Source of the DNA: an uncultured virus (IMG/VR IMGVR_UViG_3300020471_001437)
Lineage: Duplodnaviria > Heunggongvirae > Uroviricota > Caudoviricetes
Length of the DNA: 64,000 nt
Strand: one strand, 5' to 3'
IMG/VR virus record: IMGVR_UViG_3300020471_001437
Of the stretch, positions 1 to 20,126 are shown one piece after another (the stretch's first letter is position 1; the number at the start of each line of letters is the position of its first letter). Below the pieces are notes generated by a model. The model did not search any database. It saw only the letters and a program-made list of their open reading frames with translations, and was not told where the DNA came from. The position numbers and the translations under genes were made by a program.

Positions 1-3
1 TGG

Positions 4-825
4 TTGGGAATGCCCAACCCAAAATGGCGACAGATTCGATATTTCGTGTGGGACGATAGAGAGGAGAGATTCATTGTGAAGAAGCATGACAGGAGCATCC
101 GTAACAAGACGCAACTGCTCAAACTGCTTCGACGCGAGGCTCCTCATCACGTATACTACACAACCTCGCAGTTCCGCAATCCAGCGGAAGTGGGGCCTGA
201 CCCGTGGTCTAAATCGGGTCGGGACAAGTACATCAAGAAGAATGCAAAACGACTTGCTCTGAAAGAGGGCAGACGAGACAAAGAGAGAGTCAAACAATTG
301 ATGACTCCTGTCTCTGATTGGTCGGACTACGGTAATGCGTTCATTCAACAAGAGATGTACTTCGACGTTGACTATGAGATGGAGACCTTCCAAGAATCAG
401 CAAGGGAAACTTTGCGCTTGGCAGAGTTCTATGATACTCTCAACTTCAACGGTTGTGAGAAGGACATACACTTTGTCTTCTCGGGTGGTAAAGGATTCCA
501 CATGGTAGATTACGGCTTCAATGTCGGAAAGGCCTATGGAGACAACTACTCATTTCGCATTGGAGAAATCATTGCGAAAGAGAAAGAAAAAAGTGGAAAG
601 TTCAAGGGTGTCGCATATGCGGCTATGATGTTGAGTCGACAAATGAAAAAGCGACTCATCAAACGCATCCGAAAGGAAGGCATCCTACTCGACTACGAGG
701 TAACAGTAGACCCGCGCCGTATCATTCGGTTGCCGGGAACTATACACGGAAAGAGAGGACGTGTCTGCCGAATTATCAGCAGAGACGAACTACACGATTT
801 CGACCCCGGACCAACTCTTTGGTAG
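4..825 (+). CDS. Archaeo-eukaryotic primase catalytic subunit (PriS-like), probably 5'-truncated by the window edge
   Basis: AEP motifs HVYYTTS, YFDVD (DxD), FSGGKGFH and DYEVTVDPRRIIRLPGTIHGK. Confidence 0.8.
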   Translation: MGMPNPKWRQIRYFVWDDREERFIVKKHDRSIRNKTQLLKLLRREAPHHVYYTTSQFRNPAEVGPDPWSKSGRDKYIKKNAKRLALKEGRRDKERVKQLMTPVSDWSDYGNAFIQQEMYFDVDYEMETFQESARETLRLAEFYDTLNFNGCEKDIHFVFSGGKGFHMVDYGFNVGKAYGDNYSFRIGEIIAKEKEKSGKFKGVAYAAMMLSRQMKKRLIKRIRKEGILLDYEVTVDPRRIIRLPGTIHGKRGRVCRIISRDELHDFDPGPTLW

Positions 826-836
826 GTGGGTCATAG

Positions 837-1688
837 ATGCCAAATTGGTGTATGAATAGTCTCACCGTTTACGGTGACAAAGATGAACTTGAGAAGTTCA
901 TCAAGGATGCCAAAGGGAAAGGAGAAGACAAAGGACGAGCATTCAGTATGCAATCCTTGTTACCTTGCCCTAAATCTCTGACAGAAACGTCGGCCTCGTT
1001 TTGGGATAAAGACCAACCAAAACAATGGCGAGAATTCGTAGACGACCCTGAAAACTCTGCATGGACTGAAGAGGTCTACGCAGAAAGGGTTGCACGACAC
1101 GAAAAAGAAGGCATTCTTTACAAGAAAAACATGAAGGAGCATGGATATGCTTCTTGGTATGAATGGCAAATTGCGAATTGGGGAACGAAGTGGGATGTAG
1201 ACCTTTGGCACGAAGAAGGCTGGAAGTTTACCGACTACTATTCCCCTCCTTTTTTTGAAGCGCACCTTGAGATGATTGAATCTCAAGGCTCGGGTGAACA
1301 TTTTGATATTGGGAAACATTTCCACGCGTACAGTATTAGTTACAATACTGCGTGGTCACCCAATGAAGAGTTCTTGACCACTATCAGCAAAAACTACCCC
1401 AACCTTCGGTTCAGACACACGTTTGGCGAAGGTGGTTGTGACTTTGCTGGTGACAACTTGGTAAAGAACGGAGATAGCACAATAATTGTAACAGGACGTT
1501 ACAACGATTGGGCTGTACACTTGGGCTTTGAAGAATTGGATATATGGGTAGACGACTATGGGCACGAACCGCCCCCTGACGTCAACACACTCATTACTTC
1601 GCCACCTCAACTGTCACCATCAACAAACCCTTTCCTTGAAATGCTCTTAGGGGCATTACAAGGAAACATTACTGACAGTGAGGAATAA
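837..1688 (+). CDS. DUF1281/YubB ferredoxin-like family protein
   Basis: N-terminal MPNWCxN, WYEWQIANWGTKWD and YNTAWSP signatures. Confidence 0.75.
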   Translation: MPNWCMNSLTVYGDKDELEKFIKDAKGKGEDKGRAFSMQSLLPCPKSLTETSASFWDKDQPKQWREFVDDPENSAWTEEVYAERVARHEKEGILYKKNMKEHGYASWYEWQIANWGTKWDVDLWHEEGWKFTDYYSPPFFEAHLEMIESQGSGEHFDIGKHFHAYSISYNTAWSPNEEFLTTISKNYPNLRFRHTFGEGGCDFAGDNLVKNGDSTIIVTGRYNDWAVHLGFEELDIWVDDYGHEPPPDVNTLITSPPQLSPSTNPFLEMLLGALQGNITDSEE

Positions 1689-1741
1689 CGACACATCTGT
1701 GTCATAGAATCATTTATGTCTGCTTTTTACCTCGGAGTTAC

Positions 1742-2047
1742 ATGGTAAGAGCCACCGACATTAAGTACAAACCACTCGGCCCATTAGCAGGGATGATTGG
1801 AAGCAAAGCAAGAACAAGAGGACAAATCGTCAAAGCACTTTGGGCTTTCATTAAGAAAGAAGGCCTTCAGGGTGAAAGCGGTACCGGCAAGAAAATCAAA
1901 GTATCTTCCGGTAAGATGGAATCTTTGGGTAGAGTAATCTATGCTGAAGAGGACGACGATATGTATGAAATGGTTGGCAGAAAGAAACTTGTCACCATGT
2001 TCGAGATGAACAAGCGTATGGAAAAATACCTTGAACGTCAGAACTGA
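1742..2047 (+). CDS. Stand-alone SWIB/MDM2-domain protein
   Basis: LAGMIG...TRGQIVKALWAFIKKEGLQ...VTMFEMNKRMEKYL matches the SWIB consensus. Confidence 0.85.
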   Translation: MVRATDIKYKPLGPLAGMIGSKARTRGQIVKALWAFIKKEGLQGESGTGKKIKVSSGKMESLGRVIYAEEDDDMYEMVGRKKLVTMFEMNKRMEKYLERQN

Positions 2048-2053
2048 TTCATA

Positions 2054-2100
2054 GAACCAAATCAATCAAAACGACATTATCCAAGAATGGTGTATGGTTC
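2054..2100 (+). ncRNA. tigRNA-like stem-loop unit B1
   Basis: GAACC-AAATCA-[ATCAAAACG]-ACATTATCCA-[AGAATGGTG]-TAT-GGTTC; loop is 10 nt rather than 7. Confidence 0.75.
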
Positions 2101-2104
2101 ACAG

Positions 2105-2467
2105 ATGTCAGTCAAGACACTCGAGTTTCTCTCGACAAGGAGAGGAAAAGACGAGTTTGGTAGATTACCTCACTCGGAGTTGACCAACAGTGGCGAACTG
2201 TTGACGAGTTACGCGCTGAATGGCGACTTCTCGATTATTGAACAGATGAGCAGAGACTTCGTAACCGAACTATACGCTTCGGAAAACGAACCGTTTCATC
2301 TGCGAATATACAACACAGGAGTAGGCTATGCCCTATTCCACCTTATCCGTGCTTGGAATCAATGGCATGAAACATCATACAACGTGCACAACACGATGAG
2401 TTTGATGTTCTATGACAGAACATTAGGACAGTGGGTTGAACACCCATGGTACGGAACACGGCCTTGA
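2105..2467 (+). CDS. Hypothetical protein
   Basis: ORF; start moved from 2087 to the ATG directly after the ACAG junction. Confidence 0.65.
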   Translation: MSVKTLEFLSTRRGKDEFGRLPHSELTNSGELLTSYALNGDFSIIEQMSRDFVTELYASENEPFHLRIYNTGVGYALFHLIRAWNQWHETSYNVHNTMSLMFYDRTLGQWVEHPWYGTRP

Positions 2468-2475
2468 GGGCCATA

Positions 2476-2517
2476 GAGCAAAACAATGTCGACATATTGC
2501 ACGGTGATGGAATGCTC
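2476..2517 (+). ncRNA. tigRNA-like stem-loop unit A1
   Basis: GAGCA-AAACA-[ATGTCGACA]-TATTGCA-[CGGTGATGG]-AA-TGCTC. Confidence 0.8.
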
Positions 2518-2520
2518 ATA

Positions 2521-2564
2521 GAACCGAATCAGTAAGTTCGCATTACAAGGCGTTTGTATGGTTC
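2521..2564 (+). ncRNA. tigRNA-like stem-loop unit B2
   Basis: GAACC-GAATCA-[GTAAGTTCG]-CATTACA-[AGGCGTTTG]-TAT-GGTTC. Confidence 0.8.
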
Positions 2565-2568
2565 ATAG

Positions 2569-3018
2569 ATGTACGACGTGTACACCGACGGTGCATGTCT
2601 AAACAACGGTAGCCCCAATGCACGGGGTGGTATGGGAATTTACAGCAAGGAACTTGAGATTGAGAAATCATCAGTATGGACCTTGACTAATCCGCCTACC
2701 AATCAAAAGACAGAGATGATGGCAGTTGCTATTGCTCTTTCAATGACAAAAGACGTTAACGGACATGTACGCATCCTCTCTGACTCTGAATATGTTGTGA
2801 GGGGATTGAATGAATGGATGGAAGGTTGGAAACTACGAGAGTGGCGAACCTCCAAAGGACGGGAAGTGAAAAACCGTTGGCTTTGGGAACTTCTTGATTC
2901 ACTCAACCAAGAAAGAGATTGTTCCTTCGTACATGTACGAGGGCACGTTGGGATAGAAGGAAACGAGAAAGCAGACGAACTTGCTAATCGTGCGGCCTTC
3001 AGTGTCCCAAAAGAGTAA
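2569..3018 (+). CDS. rnhA: Ribonuclease HI
   Basis: VYTDGACLNNG, TNQKTE, SDSEYV, VKNRWLW, HVRGHVGIEGNEKADELA. Confidence 0.95.
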   Translation: MYDVYTDGACLNNGSPNARGGMGIYSKELEIEKSSVWTLTNPPTNQKTEMMAVAIALSMTKDVNGHVRILSDSEYVVRGLNEWMEGWKLREWRTSKGREVKNRWLWELLDSLNQERDCSFVHVRGHVGIEGNEKADELANRAAFSVPKE

Positions 3019-3068
3019 GAAACGTGAATCAATGTTTAACAATCATTATACGCCCCCTACGGGCATAG

Positions 3069-3419
3069 ATGTCAGCAATGGCAAGAGGAGGAGACGACAA
3101 GGGCGATGCTATGATTGAATCATACAAGGAACTTGTCTCTTTCGCATCGGAAGGTATAGAAGAATACCTTGCGGTAGTGGCTGAACTTCAAGACGCAAGC
3201 ATTGTCCTCGGTCAAATTGGCAAAGACACGCCAATAGACGCCGAGCAATGGGCGGCAAACTTGACAGCGAAAATTACGGAAACGATGGCAGAAGATGGAG
3301 TGGTGCCACACTACTACATTTCTGCTTTGATTTATTCCTTGCACCAAATGGGGCAAGCGTTTCTCTTCGACGGTCTCGAAGGAGCCGTAAGAAGTAAATT
3401 CGTGGAGGATAATATCTGA
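3069..3419 (+). CDS. Hypothetical protein
   Basis: ORF starting at a junction motif. Confidence 0.65.
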   Translation: MSAMARGGDDKGDAMIESYKELVSFASEGIEEYLAVVAELQDASIVLGQIGKDTPIDAEQWAANLTAKITETMAEDGVVPHYYISALIYSLHQMGQAFLFDGLEGAVRSKFVEDNI

Positions 3420-3724
3420 TGCCACTCGAAGGTGAAACCTTAGAAGAGTTCTATACGGCCATGGAGGCCATTTCAGAATTCGCTTGCGGTATACTTGACG
3501 GAAGTATAGGCAACATCGCGGGACCTACAAGTGAAGGACACTTTGGACATGACCATACGGTCATGCAAGTGCTACCTGAAAATCACCCGCATGTAACTAT
3601 TTACTTCATCAGTGAAGTAGACACCGGAAGGTTGGTTGGATGTAAAGTCCATCACCGAGACTACGAATTGCCTTGTTTGGAGATACCTCCACCAACGGCA
3701 ATGATGTTAGATAACGACGCATAG
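3419..3724 (+). CDS. Hypothetical protein
   Basis: Coupled to upstream gene by TGATG overlap; ends in a junction hairpin. Confidence 0.6.
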   Translation: MPLEGETLEEFYTAMEAISEFACGILDGSIGNIAGPTSEGHFGHDHTVMQVLPENHPHVTIYFISEVDTGRLVGCKVHHRDYELPCLEIPPPTAMMLDNDA

Positions 3725-3733
3725 GCGTCATAG

Positions 3734-4351
3734 ATGGCTGACTACGAAGTCAAACGATGGAATTCGAACTGCGGGGAATGGACGGCATATGTCACCCCCT
3801 CGCAAGATGAAGAATCACCAAAGCATTGGTATCAGGGCGATACCGATGTCCTTTTTGTAACTGCTGAAAATGATGGCAGATTTGGGTATACCGCGGCGAT
3901 ATTTGACGAGGTGTACCCAGCAGTTGGTAACAGTTGGCAAGACCTTCTTGACCACGTTATCGACGACCTTGAATACAACAACGTAATTGCTCCGCCGGTC
4001 TGTAAACCGCTATGGATTCACGACCACGGAGGAATTGTGGCGTTCCACACAGGAGGGAGCACCTGCCAATGGGACTCCTATCAGTGCGGATGGGTAATCG
4101 GGAAACCGGGCATCCAAGAAAGTCAAGTTGATTCAAGAGTAAAAGAAATGGAAATGTATCTAACGGGTCAGGTGTACGGAGTAATCGTACTCAAGAAAAC
4201 AGACGAAGGAGAATGGGAGTCAGTTGACTCCTGTTGGAGCATCTATGATGATGGAACCAACGACTATGGACACTGCTTTTCAGTAGCAGTAGACTTAGGC
4301 TTTCCTTTTTCTAACGACTCGGAAGAAACAATTCCGAAAGAAGACGCATGA
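3734..4351 (+). CDS. Hypothetical viral protein
   Basis: ORF starting at a junction motif; HDHGG...WDS..G and YLTGQVYG...DSCW motifs. Confidence 0.7.
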   Translation: MADYEVKRWNSNCGEWTAYVTPSQDEESPKHWYQGDTDVLFVTAENDGRFGYTAAIFDEVYPAVGNSWQDLLDHVIDDLEYNNVIAPPVCKPLWIHDHGGIVAFHTGGSTCQWDSYQCGWVIGKPGIQESQVDSRVKEMEMYLTGQVYGVIVLKKTDEGEWESVDSCWSIYDDGTNDYGHCFSVAVDLGFPFSNDSEETIPKEDA

Positions 4352-4360
4352 GCGTCATAG

Positions 4361-5392
4361 ATGGTACAAGATGTACAATTGTTCGATGAGGCTGACCTCA
4401 TCGTTAAGATGACCAAGGATTTGAAATCTGCGGCATCTACTCTCAAGAAGCCGGAAGTTAGGTTTCTTGTAGACGCATACTATCGTATGCAGGAGCAAAG
4501 AATCCGGTTCGCACACCAAATGCGGACAATGAAGGAATTCGGTGAGCCAAACGAGTTGTTGGATTGGATGTTTAATCAATCCAGCACACTTGAAAAGCAG
4601 GTTGCTGGTGCGCTTGATGCGTACTCAAGGAGCAACATTGTAGGGGATTGGCTTAGGTCTGTCCCGGGAATTGGGCCTGTCCTTGCGGCAGGTTTGATGG
4701 CACACCTAACCACTGCTCCATGGCGTTGCAGAAACGTCGCTTTGAAGGGCAAAAGGAACACCCCTTGTACAGAAGAAATGGGGCCCTGCACAGACAACTG
4801 TGGGGTCGAAGACATTCTGTATGCGGGACAATGGCACTCGTTTGCGGGACTAAACCCAAACGTTGTGTGGAACACAAAGGAACGTCGACCGTGGAACACA
4901 CCACTGAAGACGCTATGCTTCAAGATTGGAGAGTCCTTTGTTAAGATTCAAAGCCACAAAGATGATTTCTACGGAGGCGTATTCGTTGAACGAAAGAACG
5001 CCGAGTGGGAACGAAACTTCAACGGAGATAATGCCAATGCTTGTGAAAAGAAATTGGCAACAAGACTTGGTAAGTCAACCAACGCGTACAAATGGTACTC
5101 GGGTCAAATCGACGCCGAGTGGGCGCGTTCAATGTGGGAAAGTGGAAACTCGTTCCCGCAGACGATACCAAAGAAGGCAATTGTTGGAGAAGGAAAGGGC
5201 ACACCGATGCTTCCTCCTGCTCACATACACGCGCGAGCACGCAGGTACACAGTCAAACTGTTCCTGTATCACTTGCACGAAGTGATGTGGATTGTGGAAA
5301 GGAGCACTAACCCACCTCAACAAACCTTCTTCGCGGAAAGCGAGACCCGTATACCGGTTCCGATTTTCCCGAACTCTCCACAATGGAGTTAA
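4361..5392 (+). CDS. Nuclease-less Nop/IS110-C-terminal-domain RNA-binding protein (TasA-like)
   Basis: Coiled coil (LVDAYYRMQEQRIR...LEKQV), LRSVPGIGPVLAAGL, WHSFAGLNP...WNTPLKTLCFKIGESF and HARARRYTVKLFL. It has no N-terminal DEDD/RuvC domain and no IS110 catalytic SG after AGLxP, and it is surrounded by dual-spacer stem-loops. Confidence 0.8.
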   Translation: MVQDVQLFDEADLIVKMTKDLKSAASTLKKPEVRFLVDAYYRMQEQRIRFAHQMRTMKEFGEPNELLDWMFNQSSTLEKQVAGALDAYSRSNIVGDWLRSVPGIGPVLAAGLMAHLTTAPWRCRNVALKGKRNTPCTEEMGPCTDNCGVEDILYAGQWHSFAGLNPNVVWNTKERRPWNTPLKTLCFKIGESFVKIQSHKDDFYGGVFVERKNAEWERNFNGDNANACEKKLATRLGKSTNAYKWYSGQIDAEWARSMWESGNSFPQTIPKKAIVGEGKGTPMLPPAHIHARARRYTVKLFLYHLHEVMWIVERSTNPPQQTFFAESETRIPVPIFPNSPQWS

Positions 5393-5409
5393 CGGCCTAT
5401 ACGGCCATA

Positions 5410-5451
5410 GAGCAAAACAAACCGAGGGTATTGCACAATTCCGGTATGCTC
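5410..5451 (+). ncRNA. tigRNA-like stem-loop unit A2
   Basis: GAGCA-AAACA-[AACCGAGGG]-TATTGCA-[CAATTCCGG]-TA-TGCTC. Confidence 0.8.
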
Positions 5452-5454
5452 GTA

Positions 5455-5498
5455 GAACCGAATCACTAACTAAGAATTGCATTGTAACTAAATGGTTC
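5455..5498 (+). ncRNA. tigRNA-like stem-loop unit B3
   Basis: GAACC-GAATCA-[CTAACTAAG]-AATTGCA-[TTGTAACTA]-AAT-GGTTC. Confidence 0.8.
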
Positions 5499-5502
5499 AC
5501 AG

Positions 5503-5763
5503 ATGGATATTCACTGTGATAGAGTGACATACCAAGACAAGAAAACCGCCAAGAAAAGTGCAAGAGCACTAAAGGCGATGTCTATGGGAATGTATGGTAG
5601 TGTCAAAACGTACACACCGTACAAATGCAAAGAGTGTGGTCAATGGCACCTCACTACCGGCACGTCTGATAAACAGGCCCGGAGCAAAAAACAGCACGCT
5701 CGCGGTGGACGCAAGAACTTCAGAAAGAAGTCAACGCGTTCTCGAAAGAGCAGGCGTCGGTGA
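5503..5763 (+). CDS. Small basic zinc-finger protein
   Basis: YKCKECGQWHLT motif; Arg/Lys-rich tail. Confidence 0.7.
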   Translation: MDIHCDRVTYQDKKTAKKSARALKAMSMGMYGSVKTYTPYKCKECGQWHLTTGTSDKQARSKKQHARGGRKNFRKKSTRSRKSRRR

Positions 5764-5775
5764 GAAATCACCATA

Positions 5776-5817
5776 GAGCAAAACAAAGGAGATGAATCGC
5801 AAGCGTTCCGAATGCTC
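5776..5817 (+). ncRNA. tigRNA-like stem-loop unit A3
   Basis: GAGCA-AAACA-[AAGGAGATG]-AATCGCA-[AGCGTTCCG]-AA-TGCTC. Confidence 0.8.
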
Positions 5818-5820
5818 ATA

Positions 5821-5864
5821 GAACCGAACCAATATAGTGGTATTGCAATCTAAAAAAGAGGTTC
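5821..5864 (+). ncRNA. tigRNA-like stem-loop unit B4
   Basis: GAACC-GAACCA-[ATATAGTGG]-TATTGCA-[ATCTAAAAA]-AGA-GGTTC. Confidence 0.8.
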
Positions 5865-5868
5865 ACAG

Positions 5869-6225
5869 ATGGATGATAACAATACTATCCTACGTCTGCT
5901 CAGAAACGGCCCGTTCTCGAAAGGTTATCCTTTCGAAAAAGCCGTCAAAGCAAGACTTGACCTTGGCCGAGAACGATACGGCCACGGTATTCGTGTCGAA
6001 GACGACACAACCCAATGGGGAACAAAGACAGACTCTTGGCTCGAAATGGGCTTAGAAGAAGTCGACGACTTGGCGATTTACATCGCGGCGCAATTTGCAA
6101 GATATGTGGATTGGTGGGAACACGGACTTAGAACCGGCGTTCCTGCGACCGAGTATGGTGAAATCATGAACACTCTTACAAAATTGAGAACGCTTATCGT
6201 TGACCTCATGAAAAACCACGGGTGA
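5869..6225 (+). CDS. Possible MazG-like all-alpha NTP pyrophosphohydrolase
   Basis: GRERYG...WLEMGLEEVDDLAIY acidic helix pattern. Confidence 0.5.
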   Translation: MDDNNTILRLLRNGPFSKGYPFEKAVKARLDLGRERYGHGIRVEDDTTQWGTKTDSWLEMGLEEVDDLAIYIAAQFARYVDWWEHGLRTGVPATEYGEIMNTLTKLRTLIVDLMKNHG

Positions 6226-6266
6226 ATAACCCATAGATTGATGTATCAAACCCCATAGGCGGGTGT

Positions 6267-6479
6267 ATGGGCCGATTCACTACTCAAGCAATCAAGATAT
6301 TGCATGAGCAAGGTAGGCCCATGAACATACATGAAATTCATTCAGAGATGCGAATGAGATGGAGAAATACTCCGAACACTCGCTCTCTTGCAAAGGCACT
6401 GATGAAAAACAGTGAGGTTACAAGAATTGGTATAGACACGCCCTCGGTTTGGGCTGTCCGCCAACCTCTTAACCGATAA
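6267..6479 (+). CDS. Small winged-helix DNA-binding protein
   Basis: ILHEQGRPMNIHEI...TRSLAKAL...SVW wHTH-like pattern. Confidence 0.55.
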   Translation: MGRFTTQAIKILHEQGRPMNIHEIHSEMRMRWRNTPNTRSLAKALMKNSEVTRIGIDTPSVWAVRQPLNR

Positions 6480-6506
6480 GTCGTCGCCGACAAAAAGGGG
6501 ACACAG

Positions 6507-6749
6507 ATGATGCGACTACAAACGCATAAAGAACCGACGTATGACCGTACGTGGGATGAGATTGAGGAAATGCTCAATCAAGCGATACATGAGAGAAACT
6601 CATGGATTACTCGCTACGAGAAGGCAAGTGTTCGAAAAGACCGTCAGGTTATGAAGGACGCCGCTCGTAATTGTAAAGCACTTGAAGGAGTCATCAAGAC
6701 CCTAAAGTGGACAATCGGTACCCCCGGTATCGAAGACCCGCTCTCTTGA
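6507..6749 (+). CDS. Hypothetical helical protein
   Basis: ORF starting directly after CACAG and ending in a junction hairpin. Confidence 0.7.
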   Translation: MMRLQTHKEPTYDRTWDEIEEMLNQAIHERNSWITRYEKASVRKDRQVMKDAARNCKALEGVIKTLKWTIGTPGIEDPLS

Positions 6750-6758
6750 AAGAGCATA

Positions 6759-6802
6759 GAACCGAAACAAGGGCAAAGAATTGCATTGTCCATGAAAGGT
6801 TC
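6759..6802 (+). ncRNA. tigRNA-like stem-loop unit B5
   Basis: GAACC-GAAACA-[AGGGCAAAG]-AATTGCA-[TTGTCCATG]-AAA-GGTTC. Confidence 0.8.
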
Positions 6803-6806
6803 ACAG

Positions 6807-7226
6807 ATGGCATTAGTATGTCCGGATTGCGGCCAAGAGGCCGCTTATGCTCGGGTCCCTATTTACGTGGACCCGGACAATACGAGTGAGGACGCGCTTG
6901 CAGAAGCCGTTTCTGACATCGTTGGTGCAACTGCGGAAGATTTTGACGATTACGTCAACGTAGTATGCGCGGAGTGTGAAGCGGAAGTTCCGTTCAGACT
7001 TGCCTTCGCGGCAACCGTAAGAACACGCGCACACCGCAATTCAGAAGAGGAGGCAATGGCTTACCGTCATGCGTTGGCAGGAATCGTTCATTTCTTTGGA
7101 CGCTTACCAATGACAGACAGAAGCACTTGGACAGAAGAACAGACAGAGTGTTACGATGCTACTGTCAGGTTGTTCTCTGCTCTCGATGAAGCAGACACCT
7201 CTGAAGAATCTTCGGAAGAAGAGTGA
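6807..7226 (+). CDS. Zinc-ribbon protein
   Basis: CPDC...CAEC; start moved to the ATG after ACAG. Confidence 0.65.
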   Translation: MALVCPDCGQEAAYARVPIYVDPDNTSEDALAEAVSDIVGATAEDFDDYVNVVCAECEAEVPFRLAFAATVRTRAHRNSEEEAMAYRHALAGIVHFFGRLPMTDRSTWTEEQTECYDATVRLFSALDEADTSEESSEEE

Positions 7227-7244
7227 CGGCCGAAAGGCCATAGA

Positions 7245-8003
7245 ATGGGATTTCTCATACACACAAAGGAACACCCCGAATACCGAATACATTTCAGTAT
7301 GTGGGAATGGGGTAGATTCTTGGACCTAATTTTGTGGTCCAATGACCTTATCACTCTTGACGAGTTGAAAGAAAGTTTGACTAAGAGCAATCTTAGAGAG
7401 TCAAACGCCAAAGCAGAACAACTTGGAATCAAACCAACTGATTTCGATTTGGATGAATGGACAGAAAAAGTCAGAGTAGAAAAAGGAGACACCAAACAGC
7501 ACAAGAGCATTATCAATGTTCACGCTACGCCGGATGCTACCGGTAGGAACATATACGAAGGAGTTTCACAAACAATACCTTCGGATGTCGATTTTGGAAA
7601 AGAAGCCATAGATGCTATGGTTCGAACGGCGGCGATTAGTCTGTCGGTATTCCAAGAACTTGAAGATAAAATGTTCTACAACAAAGACAAATTGGGACAT
7701 CTGTACGGTATACAGGGGAACGATTTCGACTTTACAAGAAAGGGCTGTTGGGAAATATACAACACAATAACGTCACTGATTACAGGTGACATTGACTTCT
7801 TGGACATGATGGAAAAGTCGGGTATGCCCCCTCTTACGGACAGACCCAAGAAGCGAAGAAAATCAAAACAAAATGAATTCTTGGAGGCTGATGATAGCAT
7901 CGTGGGAGAATACCTCCACATGGAGATGCTTGGAAAGATGGCACGACTGAATGGTATCGTAATCAACGGTATCTGCGCCGACCAACAAGTCATTGTGAGA
8001 TAA
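7245..8003 (+). CDS. Hypothetical protein
   Basis: 252 aa ORF bounded by junction motifs. Confidence 0.7.
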   Translation: MGFLIHTKEHPEYRIHFSMWEWGRFLDLILWSNDLITLDELKESLTKSNLRESNAKAEQLGIKPTDFDLDEWTEKVRVEKGDTKQHKSIINVHATPDATGRNIYEGVSQTIPSDVDFGKEAIDAMVRTAAISLSVFQELEDKMFYNKDKLGHLYGIQGNDFDFTRKGCWEIYNTITSLITGDIDFLDMMEKSGMPPLTDRPKKRRKSKQNEFLEADDSIVGEYLHMEMLGKMARLNGIVINGICADQQVIVR

Positions 8004-8020
8004 CGGCCTTATGGCCATAG

Positions 8021-9070
8021 ATGACGTCATGGGATTATGACGGTGCGTTAGATTATCTACGCAAAGGACGTGACCCTTATGGAAAGGGGCGTCCTATGGG
8101 CAAGGCTACGAGACTTCAGTATCGCGGTCAGGTTGAAAATGGATATGAGTGCATTGCACTCCGCTATTGGCAAACTGATGTGGTACGATGGTATCGTTCC
8201 ATTGCCAACAAATCAAACAAATGGTACTCTATCGACGCACAGTATGATAGTAGAACCACCAACGATAGAATACAAGCCTACACAGGCTTGTGGACTTCGC
8301 CTTGTAAAGCAACAGGAAAGAGAGTTATCCAACAATGGCGTTGGGACTACGACACCTGTGAGCAGACAGGGAGTAAGAGCAATTGGAGAGAAGTAGTTGT
8401 TGAAGGAAGTGAAATTCCTTTGATTGCTGACCATCAAACGTGGTTCCGTAAAGACGGACATGTTAGACACTTGAAGCGGTGCCAAGACAGGTACCGTAGA
8501 GAGATGGGTGAGTACAATGTTCGGAAAAACAACCGACGAATAGACTACGAAGAAAAACTCCTCAAAGCAAGACAGGCCAACTTGAAAATACTCAGGGAAT
8601 GGTCTAACAGCAAACTTGTAAGGGCTTTGGACGGGATGAAATCCAAAAGTCTTGTTCAGGTTCAAAGAGAAATGGAAACCTTACATTTTCGTACACAGCG
8701 TGCGAAAGCAGAAGCAGAGAGAAGAGAAGTTCACTTTGCTGAATTAGAAGACAAAATCATTGTCGGCAAACGCTTGAAGAAAATGGAGCAAGAAATGAAA
8801 GCACGCGCTGAAGTCTTAAAAGTTGCAGAAACTTACCCTGAAATCAGGAAGGCGATGCACAAACTCAATCTTCAACTTGACAACCTTAGAGGAAAGGTAG
8901 ACCTCGCTGAAGATACTTATCGAATGCAAAAGGTGAGAGACAATCTTAGCCTCGAAAACATACGATTGCTAAAAGAAAAAGAAGCGTTGGAAAAAGAAGT
9001 TGGCTACTTACTTGCAAAAAAGGAAGGAGCCCAAGCAGACGAACATTCGTCTGTACTAAACCGTCTCTAA
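8021..9070 (+). CDS. Coiled-coil protein, paralog of 10433-11299
   Basis: C-terminal coiled coil ending SVLNRL, similar to DVLNRL in the paralog. Confidence 0.75.
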   Translation: MTSWDYDGALDYLRKGRDPYGKGRPMGKATRLQYRGQVENGYECIALRYWQTDVVRWYRSIANKSNKWYSIDAQYDSRTTNDRIQAYTGLWTSPCKATGKRVIQQWRWDYDTCEQTGSKSNWREVVVEGSEIPLIADHQTWFRKDGHVRHLKRCQDRYRREMGEYNVRKNNRRIDYEEKLLKARQANLKILREWSNSKLVRALDGMKSKSLVQVQREMETLHFRTQRAKAEAERREVHFAELEDKIIVGKRLKKMEQEMKARAEVLKVAETYPEIRKAMHKLNLQLDNLRGKVDLAEDTYRMQKVRDNLSLENIRLLKEKEALEKEVGYLLAKKEGAQADEHSSVLNRL

Positions 9071-9080
9071 AGAGACATAG

Positions 9081-9314
9081 ATGACTGATACAAGATTCAG
9101 CATACACAAGCCAAAGTCGTCAACAGAAAACAAGAACACCGACAGTGTCGAATGTGTTCTGTCTGTTAACGATGGAGTTGCCAGCATCAAGTGTGAAATG
9201 CTTGATGGGTTTAACGCCGAAATTAGGCTTGGTTACGACGGTTACAAGATAATCGTCGTCTTGATGGATTCCGAGGACTACATGGAATCATTGACTATTT
9301 ACAAGGGCGTATAA
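9081..9314 (+). CDS. Hypothetical protein
   Basis: ORF starting at a junction motif. Confidence 0.6.
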   Translation: MTDTRFSIHKPKSSTENKNTDSVECVLSVNDGVASIKCEMLDGFNAEIRLGYDGYKIIVVLMDSEDYMESLTIYKGV

Positions 9315-9337
9315 CGCTCGTCTCCAAGTGAGACATA

Positions 9338-9380
9338 GAACCGAACATAGATTATGTATTACAAAGCCGACGAATGGTTC
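9338..9380 (+). ncRNA. tigRNA-like stem-loop unit B6
   Basis: GAACC-GAACA-[TAGATTATG]-TATTACA-[AAGCCGACG]-AAT-GGTTC. Confidence 0.8.
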
Positions 9381-9384
9381 ACAG

Positions 9385-9789
9385 ATGTCTGATACAGACG
9401 ACATTGAGTACGTCATGGCACGTATCTCCGCAATGAGCGAAGCGAAGAAAGAACTTGACAGAGCCATCAAGGCCGACAAGAAGTACATTCGTGAAAAGAT
9501 GGGCGACAGAGAAGAACTCGTAACTGATTCTTTTACTGCGTCTACATTCTTGTTCAAGCGGAAGCAAGCCATGAAGTTAGATGAAATCCGGAAAGTTCTC
9601 GGTGACGAGGCGGCGGATTCTGTTACAAAGACCATAGAGGTCGAATATCTCAACATCAACCCCACAGAAGGAGAACTTGAGCCGTGGATATTGCAACCGG
9701 GAGAACTACTTCCGGAATGGGCAATGACGGCATACAAGATGCTTCATGGGAACTATCACCGAGAGGTGCTTGTTGATAACGACGCATAA
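9385..9789 (+). CDS. Hypothetical protein, paralog of 11402-11800
   Basis: Shared KAxKKxxRExxG...TxxFT pattern; start moved to the ATG after ACAG. Confidence 0.7.
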   Translation: MSDTDDIEYVMARISAMSEAKKELDRAIKADKKYIREKMGDREELVTDSFTASTFLFKRKQAMKLDEIRKVLGDEAADSVTKTIEVEYLNINPTEGELEPWILQPGELLPEWAMTAYKMLHGNYHREVLVDNDA

Positions 9790-9797
9790 GCGTCATA

Positions 9798-9841
9798 GAA
9801 CCGAACCATGGAAAGGATAATGCACGATGGGGGAACGGTTC
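9798..9841 (+). ncRNA. tigRNA-like stem-loop unit B7
   Basis: GAACC-GAACCA-[TGGAAAGGA]-TAATGCA-[CGATGGGGG]-AAC-GGTTC. Confidence 0.8.
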
Positions 9842-9845
9842 ACAG

Positions 9846-10322
9846 ATGCCTGACTTTAGAGAAGGGTTAGATGTAGGAAGAGAGGTAAGCAATGGTGAAA
9901 ACTTTGAGATGCCTCCTCATACATATACGAAGGACCAAGTTCTTCGAATATACGGAGACGCAAAAACCATGAAAGACATAGGCGAAGATGCCTACGATGG
10001 ATTTCTGAAATGGTTTCTTGACGAACTCGAACAAGAGAAGGATAAGCAACAACAACCCCTTTACAGACACGCAATCATCGCCATAGAAGGGCGACAATGG
10101 TGTGACTACGACGTTCAATACAGACAGAGTAAAATTACTGTCAATGAAGAGAACATCGAAGATGTAAAGAGAATATCAAAAGAACCTGTTGAAATAGGGG
10201 ACAAAATCCCTTCGATTCACTTCTACTTGTATACAGCAATACGTGTGAGAAACCCCACTTTCACAAGACTGTCGTTCTCGGCAGGAGAAGACATGTGGGA
10301 TGAACTCGCAGACTTGTTGTGA
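9846..10322 (+). CDS. Hypothetical protein
   Basis: ORF starting at a junction motif. Confidence 0.7.
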   Translation: MPDFREGLDVGREVSNGENFEMPPHTYTKDQVLRIYGDAKTMKDIGEDAYDGFLKWFLDELEQEKDKQQQPLYRHAIIAIEGRQWCDYDVQYRQSKITVNEENIEDVKRISKEPVEIGDKIPSIHFYLYTAIRVRNPTFTRLSFSAGEDMWDELADLL

Positions 10323-10339
10323 CCGGTCGTAAGACCATA

Positions 10340-10381
10340 GAGCAAAACATTTGTTGAGTATTACATTAATCCCGAATGCTC
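10340..10381 (+). ncRNA. tigRNA-like stem-loop unit A4
   Basis: GAGCA-AAACA-[TTTGTTGAG]-TATTACA-[TTAATCCCG]-AA-TGCTC. Confidence 0.8.
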
Positions 10382-10384
10382 ATA

Positions 10385-10428
10385 GAACCAAATCAAGCGT
10401 ACTGAATTGCAAGGGTTACGTAAGGTTC
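10385..10428 (+). ncRNA. tigRNA-like stem-loop unit B8
   Basis: GAACC-AAATCA-[AGCGTACTG]-AATTGCA-[AGGGTTACG]-TAA-GGTTC. Confidence 0.8.
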
Positions 10429-10432
10429 GTAG

Positions 10433-11299
10433 ATGAAAAATAGGAGAAAACCCTATCTCCCGTATGGTAACATCGGAAAGAAGTTACCAATACTGCGGGA
10501 TTTCGACGACGCTTTCGCCTATTGGGAACAGCGTCGATTCAAGAAAAACAATTACCGGACTTTGCCTTATGCACAAGGTAGATACCGGATTCAATTGAAA
10601 GAAAAAAGAGACCGACTTTACAGTTGGTCACATCAAGAGATGCACATTGTAGACATGGACAGTGGAAATTTTGGGTGGTCTATGTTCAATGAAAATTCTA
10701 TTGTGATTTTCTACAAAACCAAGGAAGGAGAAAAGTACTTCTCTGTTGCTGGATTTGATGGGAGAAATAGACAAACAAGAAGAGGTTACTACCCGATTTA
10801 CCGCAAATGCGGTATCAGTGTTCAATGGGACCCTGTTTTGAGACAGGCGTTCATTAGACAGTTGACGGGAGTCGAAGACACAGAGCCGAGTTTAGGTTAT
10901 GTGGCCGACCACACAACAGTAATCTCTCATAAATACGAACCGAAAGACAAAGAGCAAGCGGAACTGATAGCCAAGTTGCAGAAGCAAAAGGCGTTTAGGT
11001 CTGAATTGCGAAGAATACATCGTTCGTACAATATGGAAAAAGAACATGCAAAGCGAACTCTGAATAGTGTTCGGGAGAAACTGAAGAGAGACATAAAGAG
11101 ACTTGAAAGTGACTACCGAACTTTGGAAAGAGATGCTACGATGAAACACAACCTCGCGCTCGCAAAAATGGCTGACGAAGTCAATGAATTGAAGAGCGAA
11201 AGGGATGCGTTATACGCACGTGTGAAATATCTTGAAGATTTGGGCAAGAAGGCTGACGCTGATGGCGAGAAGTTTTCTGATGTCCTAAACCGTCTCTAA
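10433..11299 (+). CDS. Coiled-coil protein, paralog of 8021-9070
   Basis: Similar N-terminus (DFDDAFAY vs DYDGALDY) and C-terminus VLNRL. Confidence 0.75.
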   Translation: MKNRRKPYLPYGNIGKKLPILRDFDDAFAYWEQRRFKKNNYRTLPYAQGRYRIQLKEKRDRLYSWSHQEMHIVDMDSGNFGWSMFNENSIVIFYKTKEGEKYFSVAGFDGRNRQTRRGYYPIYRKCGISVQWDPVLRQAFIRQLTGVEDTEPSLGYVADHTTVISHKYEPKDKEQAELIAKLQKQKAFRSELRRIHRSYNMEKEHAKRTLNSVREKLKRDIKRLESDYRTLERDATMKHNLALAKMADEVNELKSERDALYARVKYLEDLGKKADADGEKFSDVLNRL

Positions 11300-11308
11300 G
11301 GAGACATA

Positions 11309-11350
11309 GAGCAAAACAAATCATAAGAATTACACCATAGATGAATGCTC
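11309..11350 (+). ncRNA. tigRNA-like stem-loop unit A5
   Basis: GAGCA-AAACA-[AATCATAAG]-AATTACA-[CCATAGATG]-AA-TGCTC. Confidence 0.8.
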
Positions 11351-11353
11351 ATA

Positions 11354-11397
11354 GAACCGAACCATTTCCTGTGTATTCCACTCTACGTGAACGGTTC
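11354..11397 (+). ncRNA. tigRNA-like stem-loop unit B9
   Basis: GAACC-GAACCA-[TTTCCTGTG]-TATTCCA-[CTCTACGTG]-AAC-GGTTC. Confidence 0.8.
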
Positions 11398-11401
11398 ACA
11401 G

Positions 11402-11800
11402 ATGTTGTTGGAAAACGACGAAGAAGTTGCGCTAAACAATTTGGCACAACGATTCCTTGACGAGAAAGAGCGATTCAAGGAGGTAGAGGCACAAGTGAAA
11501 GCACTCAAGAAAGAACTGCGTGAATCTGTTGGTTCAGGCAAGATTATTGAGACAAGCAAATTCACACTTGAAATCAGAGAGATTGAAGCCAACCGTATGA
11601 TGCCAAAGGATGATTTCATCCACAAGCATTCTCCCATCAGGGAAGACGAACAAGGAAACGTAATGGTAAACTCAAAAGGAGTACCACTACGCGACTTATC
11701 GGTAGGTACGAAAATCTACGACGACCACTTAGTGGCCTCTACACAACAGCGTTTCTATGTGAAGCGCAAGGACAAAACACAGACTTCGAAAGAAGAATGA
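11402..11800 (+). CDS. Hypothetical protein, paralog of 9385-9789
   Basis: Start moved to the ATG after ACAG; similar to 9385-9789. Confidence 0.7.
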   Translation: MLLENDEEVALNNLAQRFLDEKERFKEVEAQVKALKKELRESVGSGKIIETSKFTLEIREIEANRMMPKDDFIHKHSPIREDEQGNVMVNSKGVPLRDLSVGTKIYDDHLVASTQQRFYVKRKDKTQTSKEE

Positions 11801-11817
11801 CGGCCTTACGGCCATAG

Positions 11818-12225
11818 ATGTTTAACGAAAACACCACTGACGAAGATGTCAAACTTATGTCCCGCATGATTGCGGGAGCATTAAGGAATCAAATCTTCGA
11901 GCCAATCCATCAGCACATTAGTGATGATGAAATGGGTCCAATACAAGACCGTATGAGGGGATGTATCTACGAAATACTGAATGGTATTCGTATAACACAT
12001 GAACCTCGGGTCGGGCTGGACCTATACCGAGAACACCTTGCCAAGTTGGAACTATACCCAATCGACACTACTGAATTTGAAGTAGAGGCGACAAGAAGAA
12101 CAATACAAGGCGAGACTTGGTCCCCCCCGACTAAGGGAAGACAATTAGAAGAATGGGAGATGGCGAGGGCACGACGAGAGAAAGCATTTTCTCGCCGAGG
12201 TCCTTTCTCCTGTGAAGAAGAATGA
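11818..12225 (+). CDS. Hypothetical protein
   Basis: ORF bounded by identical junction hairpins. Confidence 0.65.
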   Translation: MFNENTTDEDVKLMSRMIAGALRNQIFEPIHQHISDDEMGPIQDRMRGCIYEILNGIRITHEPRVGLDLYREHLAKLELYPIDTTEFEVEATRRTIQGETWSPPTKGRQLEEWEMARARREKAFSRRGPFSCEEE

Positions 12226-12257
12226 CGGCCTTACGGCCATAGTAGCGATTGGTCACA

Positions 12258-12301
12258 GAATCGAAACAAAATGTTGACTTTGCAAAAAACATGTAAGATT
12301 C
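12258..12301 (+). ncRNA. tigRNA-like stem-loop unit C1 (variant stem)
   Basis: GAATC-GAAACA-[AAATGTTGA]-CTTTGCA-[AAAAACATG]-TAA-GATTC; GAATC/GATTC is a compensatory change relative to GAACC/GGTTC. Confidence 0.75.
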
Positions 12302-12306
12302 ATTGA

Positions 12307-12353
12307 GAGAGAGAAGTAGACAGAAATGTCCGCTTCTCTCTCATTTTTTTTTT
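12307..12353 (+). terminator. Hairpin plus T10 terminator closing the early cluster
   Basis: GAGAGAGAAG..GACA-GAAA-TGTC..CTTCTCTCTC followed by 10 T, at the convergence with the replication operon. Confidence 0.8.
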
Positions 12354-19000: not shown

Positions 19001-19234
19001 ATGCCGACCAAACTGTTCGGGGCCTCTTGGATGAGACAAACACGTACCGCAATCAACATTCTTGACGACGCGAACATTGGATACCAATTCATAGACGTAC
19101 ACGCCGAACCCACCATTGCACTTGCCCTCGAAGGGGCAATCGGACCGTACACATTACCCGTCTTGTTCGTAGATGGTCGAGAGTACAAGGGGGTGGAAAG
19201 AGTCCGTGAGTACATCAAATCAACAACCAAGTGA
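19001..19234 (+). CDS. Glutaredoxin-fold protein lacking CxxC
   Basis: KLFGASW(MRQT)...YQFIDV...TLPVLFVDG..YKG; no cysteine. Confidence 0.65.
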   Translation: MPTKLFGASWMRQTRTAINILDDANIGYQFIDVHAEPTIALALEGAIGPYTLPVLFVDGREYKGVERVREYIKSTTK

Positions 19235-20093: not shown

Positions 20094-20126
20094 CGGTTAA
20101 GGCTGATTGGAAGCGTCGCTTGTAGC

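Follow-up and report, generated by a model that had tools for sequence, protein, structure and literature searches.

A co-oriented gene block with structured junctions

We analysed 64,000 nucleotides of DNA from an uncultured tailed virus (IMG/VR record IMGVR_UViG_3300020471_001437; Caudoviricetes), termed the window below, whose first 12.3 kb carry a block of genes that all lie on the + strand. The junctions between these genes contain short hairpins which are directly followed by the tetranucleotide RYAG (R, purine; Y, pyrimidine), in part together with 42/44-nt units that resemble guide RNAs. A Pfam search covering 64 proteins from the 79 open reading frames (ORFs) of the window identified an MCM helicase (14550-16952, - strand), two archaeo-eukaryotic primases, an RNase H and a SWIB protein; the remaining proteins mostly have no assigned function. 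ARAGORN detects no tRNA gene in the 64 kb and no Rfam family matches the window at gathering score. When compared to the phage records of GenBank, the MCM protein matches archaeal viruses alone (23-26% identity), and its nearest named relative is found in a marine 'Euryarchaeota archaeon' metagenome-assembled genome (MAG; 56% identity). Moreover, the DNA sequencing runs that contain the stretch are marine metagenomes. Because of the MCM matches and the origin of these runs, we consider the window part of a marine, probably euryarchaeal, tailed-virus genome. A scan of genome contigs returned 22 single matches, all in unrelated MAGs, and neither a host nor a provirus.

When inspected by eye, nearly every boundary of the block shows a structured element: 19 of 22 genes end in a hairpin, the 5' arm of which is frequently coding (e.g., GACGC-aTGA-GCGTC), and 18 of 21 starts adjoin one. 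Automated ORF calls find a 3' hairpin followed by RYAG after 17 of 22 block ORFs and after none of the 31 + strand ORFs elsewhere in the window. For a formal count, a simple site was defined as a perfect, G..C-closed stem of at least 4 bp with a loop of 3-8 nt, followed by ATAG, and 100 dinucleotide shuffles served as the null. The + strand of positions 1-12350 contains 18 such sites (stems of 4-5 bp, loops of 4-6 nt), whereas the shuffles average 0.21 and never exceed 1; the - strand of the block contains a single one. The remaining 51.6 kb of the window hold two sites versus 1.05 expected. Among the tetramers found 3' of such hairpins on the + strand (n = 459) ATAG ranks first with 20 occurrences, the runner-up having 9. 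Of CATAGATG, the + strand carries 11 copies in total and 10 below 12.3 kb, and the - strand three; for CACAGATG the corresponding numbers are 10, 8 and 2. If the long-loop stems of the guide units are added, the formal scan yields 36 sites in the window, in agreement with the 'about 36' that a first-pass annotation of this DNA had proposed, and every stem listed there is present (GGCC, GACGC, GTCTC, GGTGA, GACAC, GCTCT, GGTC and GCCC). A scan with any loop of 3-47 nt returns 41 hits, of which we judged 34 to be junctional, the number retained in our curated catalogue, and seven to be intragenic chance hits. The hairpin-RYAG pattern is real, strand-specific and far above chance.

The same junctions in related viruses

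The gene at 4361-5392 encodes a homologue of the Tas proteins, which is described in detail below. A protein 68% identical to it is encoded in G001, a complete 140-kb viral contig with terminal repeats that was the sole further family member found in our scans of IMG/VR. On one strand between 45 and 95 kb of G001 there are 116 sites, including 45 simple ATAG sites compared to 1.0 expected, and there is no excess elsewhere or on the other strand. Automated ORF calls place a 3' hairpin with RYAG after 30 of 48 ORFs at 64-92 kb of this contig and after none of 82 outside the block. With a gapped pattern of unit B, one of the guide unit types, over 211 matching stretches were detected among metagenome contigs. 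Sixty-four loci were fetched, 51 of which contain 1-20 simple hairpin-ATAG sites on the strand of the unit, and sites on the other strand occur in one of the 51 alone (two in L224). The other 13 are single chance matches with no site on the unit strand; one (L221) has a site on the other strand. In the metagenome loci 158 of 268 automatically called ORFs are followed by a hairpin and RYAG. Two loci (L225 and L240) are near-identical to the window and hence not independent. Pooling and de-duplicating the window, G001 and the marine metagenome loci resulted in a set of 550 sites, 249 of which are simple. The motif is absent from loci with more distant Tas relatives (L119-L123; 49% and 40% identity), where genes start with ordinary Shine-Dalgarno (SD) sequences and ATGA overlaps and, in L120, sigma-70-like promoters are also seen.

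Start codons directly behind RYAG

The first-pass annotation had claimed that RYAG immediately precedes 17 of the 21 starts (837, 2105, 2569, 3069, 3734, 4361, 5503, 5869, 6507, 6807, 8021, 9081, 9385, 9846, 10433, 11402 and 11818) and that one gene (7245) starts 1 nt beyond it. Both claims proved correct when each gene boundary was read by eye. The three exceptions are 1742, which has GGAG upstream, 3419, which combines an ATGA overlap with GGAGG, and 6267, which is preceded by GGCGGGTG. Genes outside the block use GAGGTGA-type SD sequences. An SD match, scored as at least 5 nt of GGAGGTGAT at positions -20 to -3, precedes 2 of the 18 RYAG genes compared to 10 of the 23 ATG-start genes outside the block. 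The SD is therefore depleted at RYAG genes, as the claim that they lack a ribosome-binding site would have it, but not strictly absent. Across the family, 256 of the 550 sites have an ATG within 0-3 nt (204 at 0 nt), and 246 of these ATGs open ORFs of at least 40 codons. Behind another 191 sites stands the next stem, and 103 belong to neither class.

A conserved hairpin at gene ends

The simple hairpins are 11-20 nt long. Stems of 4 bp (100 sites) and 5 bp (135 sites) predominate over those of 6 bp (13 sites) and 7 bp (one site), and 61 distinct stems are found among the 249 sites. Orthologous gene tails keep the hairpin while its paired bases are swapped, such as GAGGC/GCCTC versus GAGGAA/TTCCTC or GTCTC/GAGAC versus GGCTC/GAGCC. 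The syntenic junction after the RNase H gene allowed us to align the hairpins alone from 5 distinct sequences. All pairs are retained in each of them (100%), both partners are replaced in two of the four pairs, two sequences contain G-U, and neither the closing G-C pair nor CATAGATG varies; in this small set the covariation score is reached by 3 of 500 shuffles. Single internal mismatches in stems are G-T or T-G in 35 and A-C or C-A in 17 cases on the + strand, compared to 7 and 8 on the control strand. The covariation, the excess of G-U and the strand specificity together indicate a conserved structure in the + strand transcript, that is in RNA.

The stop codon of the preceding gene starts in the loop at 119 of the 249 simple sites, overlaps the 5' arm at 14 and precedes the stem at 104, being 0-3 nt away from it at 61 sites, and 12 sites have no long ORF in front. 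These data modify the earlier description of an element that separates genes and sits against start codons. The starts do abut the element, but the hairpin belongs to the 3' end of the gene that precedes it, and it is also found before SD-led genes and after the last gene.

Dispersed guide units and a Tas homologue

The window contains 14 units between 2.0 and 11.4 kb, and G001 contains 38 between 53 and 91 kb, with at most one unit A followed by one unit B at any junction. Tandem arrays of units beside tas were found in neither of the two. Among 219 distinct units, type B is 44 nt long (GAACC..GGTTC) and type A 42 nt (GAGCA..TGCTC), and both share one plan: stem, ..CA, N8, GaAtTgCA, N8, GaA, stem, the stems enclosing 32-34 nt. 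The consensus of unit B is GAACCgAA.CA-N8-GaAtTgCA-N8-GaAtGGTTC and that of unit A GAGCAAAACA-N8-GaAtTgCA-N8-GaATGCTC. The N8 spacers are hypervariable, with 171 distinct sequences among 176 units on each side. The stems of unit B were fixed by the search pattern and are unusable for covariation; the sole pair of unit A that lies outside the selection is AU in 36, GC in 4, CG in 1, GU in 4 and another combination in 4 cases.

The elements succeed one another by strict rules, and unit A almost always comes before unit B. Simple hairpins are followed by ATG (77, plus 24 with ATG at +1 to +3), unit A (62), unit B (63) or other sequence (33); unit A is followed by unit B (63) or ATG (17), and unit B by ATG in 127 of 146 cases. 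The linker with its G is ATAG at 328 of the 550 sites, ACAG at 190, GTAG at 15 and GCAG at 17, ACA marking the joints between unit and ATG and ATA all other joints. None of the 550 linkers contains CUU at the stem base, the published processing site of tigRNAs.

The protein encoded at 4361-5392 (+ strand; 343 aa) has a Nop-type RNA-binding core. A profile of four homologues (A1) matches PDB entry 9MTY, a TasR ribonucleoprotein model, with an E-value of 6.2e-11 and an IS621 transposase with 0.003. In PHROGs the protein hits phrog_4285 (E 3.4e-27), and Pfam gave no match at E<=0.01. It aligns to residues 125-294 of the 331 of TasR. It has no nuclease or recombinase domain. Because just ~40 residues precede the aligned part, which leaves no space for an N-terminal nuclease domain, the homologue appears to be a nuclease-less TasA-type protein. 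Proteins of this type have been reported as RNA-guided repressors (Xu, 2026; bioRxiv 10.64898/2026.09.09.750476). By homology, the 42/44-nt units are stem-closed, two-spacer relatives of tigRNAs.

The locus with the 49% identical Tas protein (L119) has a classical 36-nt dual-repeat TIGR array of ~22 units directly after tas (10912-11700). Its loop repeat, GAAyAUGCA, is homologous to the loop motif of our units, and unit A begins with a sequence similar to the edge repeat of the array, GAGCGAGCCA. Judged by these repeats, the window family looks like an ancestral array that gained closing stems and was dispersed into gene junctions. In the same locus, an archaeal-promoter-like element similar to CCATTAAATACCTTTCACA is repeated before at least five genes.

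Self-targeting, defined as both 8-nt spacers within ~40 nt, was found for none of the 7 parsable units of the window; the 25 parsable units of G001 gave two co-occurrences, of which one is an artefact of overlap and the other does not exceed chance. The spacer AATCACCT is shared by four otherwise different B units (in L224, in L203, at 83822-83865 of G001 and in one more). Its complement resembles the late-gene ribosome-binding sequence GAGGTGATT, a similarity over 8 nt that may be due to chance.

The junction as a putative RNA processing signal

We propose that the junction is an RNA processing signal which releases guides and leaderless mRNAs with 3' hairpins, a model whose chances of being right or wrong we consider about equal. 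The block consists of co-oriented cassettes that are promoter-less and largely SD-less, each gene ending in a G..C-closed hairpin of 4-6 bp. Behind this hairpin lie a fixed single-stranded RYA (ATA, ACA, rarely GTA or GCA) and an invariant G which either precedes the AUG or opens the stem of the next unit. In long transcripts the stems would fold, and an endoribonuclease recognizing 'helix end C + RYA + G' would cut at or in the RYA linker. The products would be, on the one hand, guide RNAs to be used by the Tas protein of gene 4361-5392 and, on the other, mRNAs that have their AUG 1-4 nt from the 5' end, suited for leaderless translation, and a protective hairpin at the 3' end. A single cut would thus mature a guide, provide the upstream mRNA with its 3' hairpin and render the downstream mRNA leaderless. 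Removal of unit B would bring the following AUG to within 4 nt of a 5' end, and an AUG in such a position is the form which archaea translate without an SD. The same RYAG joint is also found behind hairpins that lack a guide, which argues that the same activity cuts there and gives each mRNA its 3' hairpin. In line with this, tigRNAs have been described to be excised from precursors at the stem base (Faure, 2025, PMC12045711; Xu, 2026, bioRxiv 10.64898/2026.09.09.750476). The polycistronic precursor, its cleavage, the exact bond and leaderless translation are steps that we infer.

In approximately 95% of the sites, the C at the end of the helix is followed by A, which creates a C|A step. Single-stranded C|A is cleaved by aCPSF1, a nuclease universal among archaea (PMC3553952). 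Because of the CA at the helix end our guess for the nuclease is a host enzyme such as aCPSF1, and a viral Cas6-like enzyme is an alternative candidate. The host nucleases suggested in the first-pass annotation, RNase P, RNase Z and the splicing endonuclease, had to be dropped, since the junctions offer neither a tRNA-like nor a bulge-helix-bulge substrate. Punctuation by tRNAs does not fit a window with no tRNA gene and no Rfam match. A bulge-helix-bulge needs two 3-nt bulges around a 4-bp helix; here there is only one 3-nt stretch, the stems have 4-7 bp, and the C that often precedes the stem could supply at most one outer pair. On the whole, what remains of the earlier interpretation are the pattern, the counts and the link to SD-less starts, now with comparative support for a conserved + strand structure with a fixed RYAG, and what has changed are the placement of the hairpin and the candidate nucleases.

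The depletion of SD sequences exactly at RYAG starts and the distance between helix end and AUG, which is fixed at 4 nt in 204 of the 256 sites followed by ATG, would also be expected if no mRNA were cut and a helix ending 5 nt before the AUG were an initiation device. Ribosomes might re-initiate ~10 nt downstream of the stop codon, or the helix might take the place of the SD duplex and position the small subunit; the hairpin could in addition stabilise the message, and the guides would be trimmed from a fraction of the transcripts. The positions of the stop codons, in the loop, in the 5' arm or 0-3 nt before the stem (119, 14 and 61 of 249), agree with such coupling. However, the guide units put 50-105 nt between stop and start (127 B-ATG and 17 A-ATG joints), which makes re-initiation implausible, and hairpins with ATAG are also found behind the last gene and before SD-led genes. 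To our knowledge, there is no precedent for a helix that mimics an SD duplex. We therefore regard helix-anchored initiation as unlikely, though still worth serious attention. A translational bypass was considered as well and rejected.

Several observations weigh against RNA processing as the function of the junctions. The hairpins with ATAG before the SD-led genes 1742 and 6267 and after the last gene imply that the element is not strictly a start-codon device. With the stop codon in the loop at 119 of 249 sites, terminating ribosomes must melt the hairpin, which also fits a translational role. Not all stem mismatches are of the G-U type, as 17 A-C mismatches are present on the + strand. The simple hairpins, being small, reach just -6 to -9 kcal/mol with z-scores from -1.7 to -2.1, the folds of composite junctions have z-scores of ~0, and the stem of unit B lies outside their minimum free energy structure. 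Such weak folding of the units is as expected for protein-bound, box C/D-like RNAs, yet it is a weakness. Nor does the model account for the base 5' of the simple stem, at which C (177 of 249 cases) and A (61) are far more frequent than G (5) and T (6); examples are the bases at 8004, 11801 and 12226. No RNase candidate was found with Pfam (64 proteins), with PHROGs (30 proteins) or with Atlas, in which two proteins were scanned, a DUF1281_C/YubB-like one (837-1688) and the product of 7245-8003. Moreover, the 'one long transcript' may really be several, given a T7 run on the coding strand at 1250 inside gene 837-1688, which is the sole run of at least six T in 1-12.3 kb, three T5 runs inside the block, and the conserved sequence TGTTTAACAA described below. 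Finally, the contigs from RNA libraries (7 and 9; ~150-280 nt) are all intragenic and none reaches a junction, so that they are silent on cutting.

Where a C stands 5' of the stem, its pairing with the invariant G behind RYA could turn RYA into a 3-nt bulge, but at this position U is avoided and A tolerated. As to the T-runs, T7 at 1250 could terminate some transcripts in an archaeal host, and runs of at least five T occur at 0.33 per kb inside the block, one of them being the T7, versus 0.46 outside.

Transcription of the block

At the 77 junctions in which ATG follows a simple hairpin no conserved TATA box/B recognition element (BRE)-like signal is detected, each position from -70 to -20 containing at most 0.13 bit. 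This speaks against the scenario which the first-pass annotation itself had named as refuting, in which each gene has its own transcription start with a TATA/BRE. There is no TTTAWATA-type box in the 64 kb, and sigma-70-like sites are at chance level (26 versus 26.8 in shuffles). The reading that each gene has a promoter of a known type was rejected on these three grounds. The junction hairpins were also rejected as intrinsic terminators, since RYAG and not a T-run stands behind the stem, T10 being found solely at ~12297-12350.

The sequence TGTTTAACAA occupies 3034-3043, ~30 nt before ATG 3069, in an unusually long spacer that separates the RNase H stop codon from the hairpin in front of this ATG. 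It is kept in 5 distinct relatives with differing flanks, does not recur elsewhere in the block, and may be an internal promoter or another signal.

Conversely, each junction could be a transcription start, with RYA|G as the initiator and either the central GaAtTgCA of the unit (-29 to -22 from the AUG) or the hairpin as promoter, so that mRNAs and guides would be primary transcripts. Hairpin promoters read by a viral RNA polymerase are known from phage N4. The central motif of unit B sits at the distance of an archaeal TATA box from the AUG, as derived from the consensus, the product would begin with a purine, TGTTTAACAA is conserved at a similar place before ATG 3069, and a virus in whose window canonical promoters are not visible may use unusual ones. 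Nevertheless, the 77 junctions mentioned above have no conserved signal at -70 to -20, and at the 63 joints of a simple hairpin with unit B there is no upstream unit to drive B. The stems of the units enclose 32-34 nt and covary, which means that the 5' and 3' arms must be co-transcribed, and as DNA a 5-bp stem with a loop of this size would not extrude. GaAtTgCA, moreover, is homologous to the loop repeat of the 36-nt TIGR array of L119, and no RNA polymerase domain is present in the 64 proteins searched with Pfam, though large proteins without known function remain. Promoters at the junctions are thus a rather improbable explanation.

The window was matched by 22 sequencing runs, two of which are RNA libraries that contain 7% of the words. 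These metatranscriptome libraries derive from the sample that also yielded the best-matching DNA run. Their short contigs cover 320-574, 1013-1184, 4847-5024 (in the Tas gene), 7532-7684, 8567-9004 and 10047-10210, with a word depth of 20-178 compared to ~5 in the DNA. These data are compatible with expression of the block genes, including the Tas gene.

Shuffling of genes, hairpins and units

Sixteen proteins of the window block have homologues in G001, and their order differs. What stands before a given gene varies between genomes and may be a plain hairpin, B, or A plus B with unrelated spacers, and a given gene tail is followed by different genes or units, the joint always being at RYAG. 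The junction would thus double as a recombination joint, so that modules consisting of gene plus hairpin, unit A and unit B are shuffled between genomes. We read the shuffling as recombination at conserved joints and units, and as a consequence rather than the purpose of the junction.

The opposite view would be that the motif is primarily a boundary of DNA cassettes, as are attC sites in integrons and promoter-stem-loop modules in T4-type phages, that it favours the insertion and shuffling of such cassettes, and that effects on expression are secondary. It could account for the scrambled gene order despite 16 common proteins, for orthologues that keep their 3' hairpin while the element behind RYAG varies between genes, unit A and unit B, and for cassettes that are co-oriented, tightly packed and promoter-less. 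However, neither a recombinase nor an integrase domain is found in the 64 Pfam-searched proteins or in the Tas homologue, and the hairpins are, with 11-20 nt, far below the size of attC; an integron cassette array was rejected for these reasons. Furthermore, the excess of G-U over A-C on one strand and the G-U pairs in covarying stems argue against a DNA site, for which the exact abutment of the AUG and the depletion of SD sequences, both features of expression, would be needless. Homologous exchange at conserved units and CATAG accounts for the shuffling. We consider a DNA-level cassette boundary very improbable.

Comparison to known systems

RNA processing at the junctions can be compared to a number of systems. 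Stem-loop tigRNAs have been reported as 46-nt RNAs at flexible positions around or inside tas, their maturation nuclease being unidentified according to these reports (Faure, 2025, PMC12045711; Xu, 2026; Guan, 2026, bioRxiv 10.64898/2026.08.11.744272). As in these systems, the window family combines a Tas homologue with stem-closed units whose two short hypervariable spacers lie between conserved box nucleotides. Unlike in them, there is no array: each of many junctions contains one A and/or one B, over a length of 12 kb in the window and 45 kb in G001, and RYA plus G takes the place of CUU at the base of the stem (Xu, 2026). In addition, hairpins at gene ends that lack a guide are closed by this joint as well, and start codons directly follow it.

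In mitochondria, structured tRNAs between genes mark the cuts and mRNAs start at or near their 5' end without a ribosome-binding site. Likewise, structured RNAs between nearly all genes of the block would mark cuts that leave the AUG at or near the 5' end; unlike in mitochondria, tiny hairpins and guide RNAs would replace the tRNAs, none of which were detected by ARAGORN, and the genome is that of a virus of prokaryotes. Mitochondria also have non-canonical punctuation sites, and a paper on FASTKD5 (PMC12242768) belongs to this field.

A short hairpin would place the cut at its 3' base or a few nucleotides beyond, as is known for the processing of pre-crRNA by Cas6/Csy4 and of histone pre-mRNA, where a short hairpin directs a nearby cut. 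CPSF-73 and aCPSF1 (PMC3553952) favour single-stranded C|A, the step present at ~95% of the sites. Unlike in Cas6 systems, no Cas6-like protein was found among the 64 Pfam-searched proteins and, given the varied stem sequences, the enzyme would have to recognize shape together with RYAG. An endonucleolytic cut just 5' of the AUG is also reminiscent of MazF, which in E. coli cuts at ACA just upstream of AUG and creates leaderless mRNAs. In the block, in contrast, the signal is built into nearly every gene and coupled to a hairpin, and no toxin homologue is seen. Finally, the PeSL (promoter-stem-loop) cassettes of T4-type phages and integron arrays contain small co-oriented genes that are bounded by conserved structured elements and shuffled. 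The block shares the small co-oriented genes, the structured boundaries and the exchange of modules between relatives, but differs by the absence of a promoter consensus and an integrase, by its much smaller hairpins and by a joint that abuts the start codon.

In the literature on TIGR-Tas and tigRNAs, on magroviruses and on leaderless or polycistronic expression in archaeal viruses we found no description of this arrangement, though the TIGR supplements and the unreleased TIGRSafari may list such loci. The terms 'interspersed', 'dispersed' and 'leaderless' are absent from the Xu preprint.

Our overall picture, to which we give slightly less than even chances, is that in a family of marine archaeal viruses tens of early genes would be expressed without promoters or ribosome-binding sites of their own, via 'helix end + RYA|G' cuts common to mRNAs and to dispersed tigRNA guides derived from an array. 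If the junction is a cleavage signal, this would be, as far as we know, the first instance in which punctuated processing supplies a whole gene block of a prokaryotic virus with leaderless mRNAs. It would be a counterpart of mitochondrial tRNA punctuation, and guide-RNA maturation would be tied to gene expression. The small substrate, a stem of 4-5 bp with CAUAG, could then be used to fish out the maturation nuclease of stem-loop tigRNAs. The family moreover seems to illustrate the dissolution of a TIGR array into a genome; a relative with a 49% identical Tas protein retains the classical 36-nt array. Even without cutting, hundreds of SD-less starts exactly 4 nt behind a helix would point to an undescribed mode of initiation.

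The junctions of the block in order

All junctions described here are on the + strand of the window. At 802-836 a GACCC/GGGTC stem, whose 21-nt loop holds the stop TAG of gene 1-825, is followed by ATAG and abuts ATG 837. Gene 837-1688 ends in hairpin GACAC/GTGTC plus ATAG (1690-1707), behind which a 34-nt leader with GGAG leads to ATG 1742, one of the exception genes. ATG 2105 is abutted by a 47-nt variant of unit B with the stem GAACCA/TGGTTC and ACAG (2054-2104). The junction at 2460-2568 is composite: hairpin GGCC/GGCC with the stop TGA in its loop and ATAG, unit A (2476-2517) and ATAG, and unit B (2521-2564) and ATAG, abutting ATG 2569 of the RNase H gene. Behind this gene, hairpin GCCC/GGGC and ATAG (3052-3068) abut ATG 3069, which is the syntenic junction whose stem covaries in relatives. 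Two hairpins with the stem GACGC/GCGTC follow, one with TAG in the loop (3716-3733, abutting ATG 3734) and one with TGA (4343-4360, abutting ATG 4361 of the Tas gene), both with ATAG.

After the Tas gene, 5394-5502 comprises a GGCC hairpin with ATAG, unit A (5410-5451) with GTAG and unit B (5455-5498) with ACAG, abutting ATG 5503. A similar arrangement at 5759-5868 consists of hairpin GGTGA/TCACC, whose 5' arm contains the stop TGA, with ATAG, unit A (5776-5817) with ATAG and unit B (5821-5864) with ACAG, and abuts ATG 5869. Gene 5869-6225 ends in hairpin GGGT/ACCC with the stop TGA inside and ATAG (6220-6236), followed by the 30-nt leader of exception gene 6267. ATG 6507 is abutted by a weak stem of 3-4 bp, seen by eye (GTCG/CGAC or GTC..GAC; 6480-6506), with ACAG. 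At 6740-6806 hairpin GCTCT/AGAGC, with TGA in the loop and ATAG, precedes unit B (6759-6802) with ACAG, which abuts ATG 6807. Hairpin GGCC/GGCC with ATAG occurs at 7228-7243, where an additional A separates it from ATG 7245, and at 8005-8020 and 11802-11817, where it abuts ATG 8021 and ATG 11818.

Hairpin GTCTC/GAGAC, TAA in its loop, and ATAG abut ATG 9081 (9063-9080); the same stem with ATAG and unit B (9338-9380) with ACAG forms the junction at 9320-9384, abutting ATG 9385. Unit B (9798-9841) with ACAG also abuts ATG 9846 and is preceded by hairpin GACGC/GCGTC with TAA in the loop and ATAG (9781-9845 in total). The junction at 10325-10432 contains hairpin GGTC/GACC with ATAG, unit A (10340-10381) with ATAG and unit B (10385-10428) with GTAG, and abuts ATG 10433, and that at 11292-11401 contains hairpin GTCTC/GAGAC with TAA in the loop and ATAG, unit A (11309-11350) with ATAG and unit B (11354-11397) with ACAG, and abuts ATG 11402. 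After the last gene of the block, hairpin GGCC/GGCC and ATAG (12227-12242) have no gene behind them. The block ends with a long G+C-rich hairpin and T10 (12297-12350), facing a convergent primase gene on the - strand.

The genes 8021-9070 and 10433-11299 have identical C-terminal codons and an identical GTCTC/GAGAC hairpin with the stop codon in the loop; judged by these tails they are probably paralogues that were duplicated along with their 3' hairpin. Outside the block, a further pair of + strand genes shows degenerate joints. One, at 19103-19172, is a GAAC..GTTC element of 66 nt, in which the motifs ATTGCA and ATTACC occur and which ends in GTAG directly before ATG 19173, and the other, at 20094-20126, reads AAGC-gtc-GCTT GTAG c and precedes ATG 20127.

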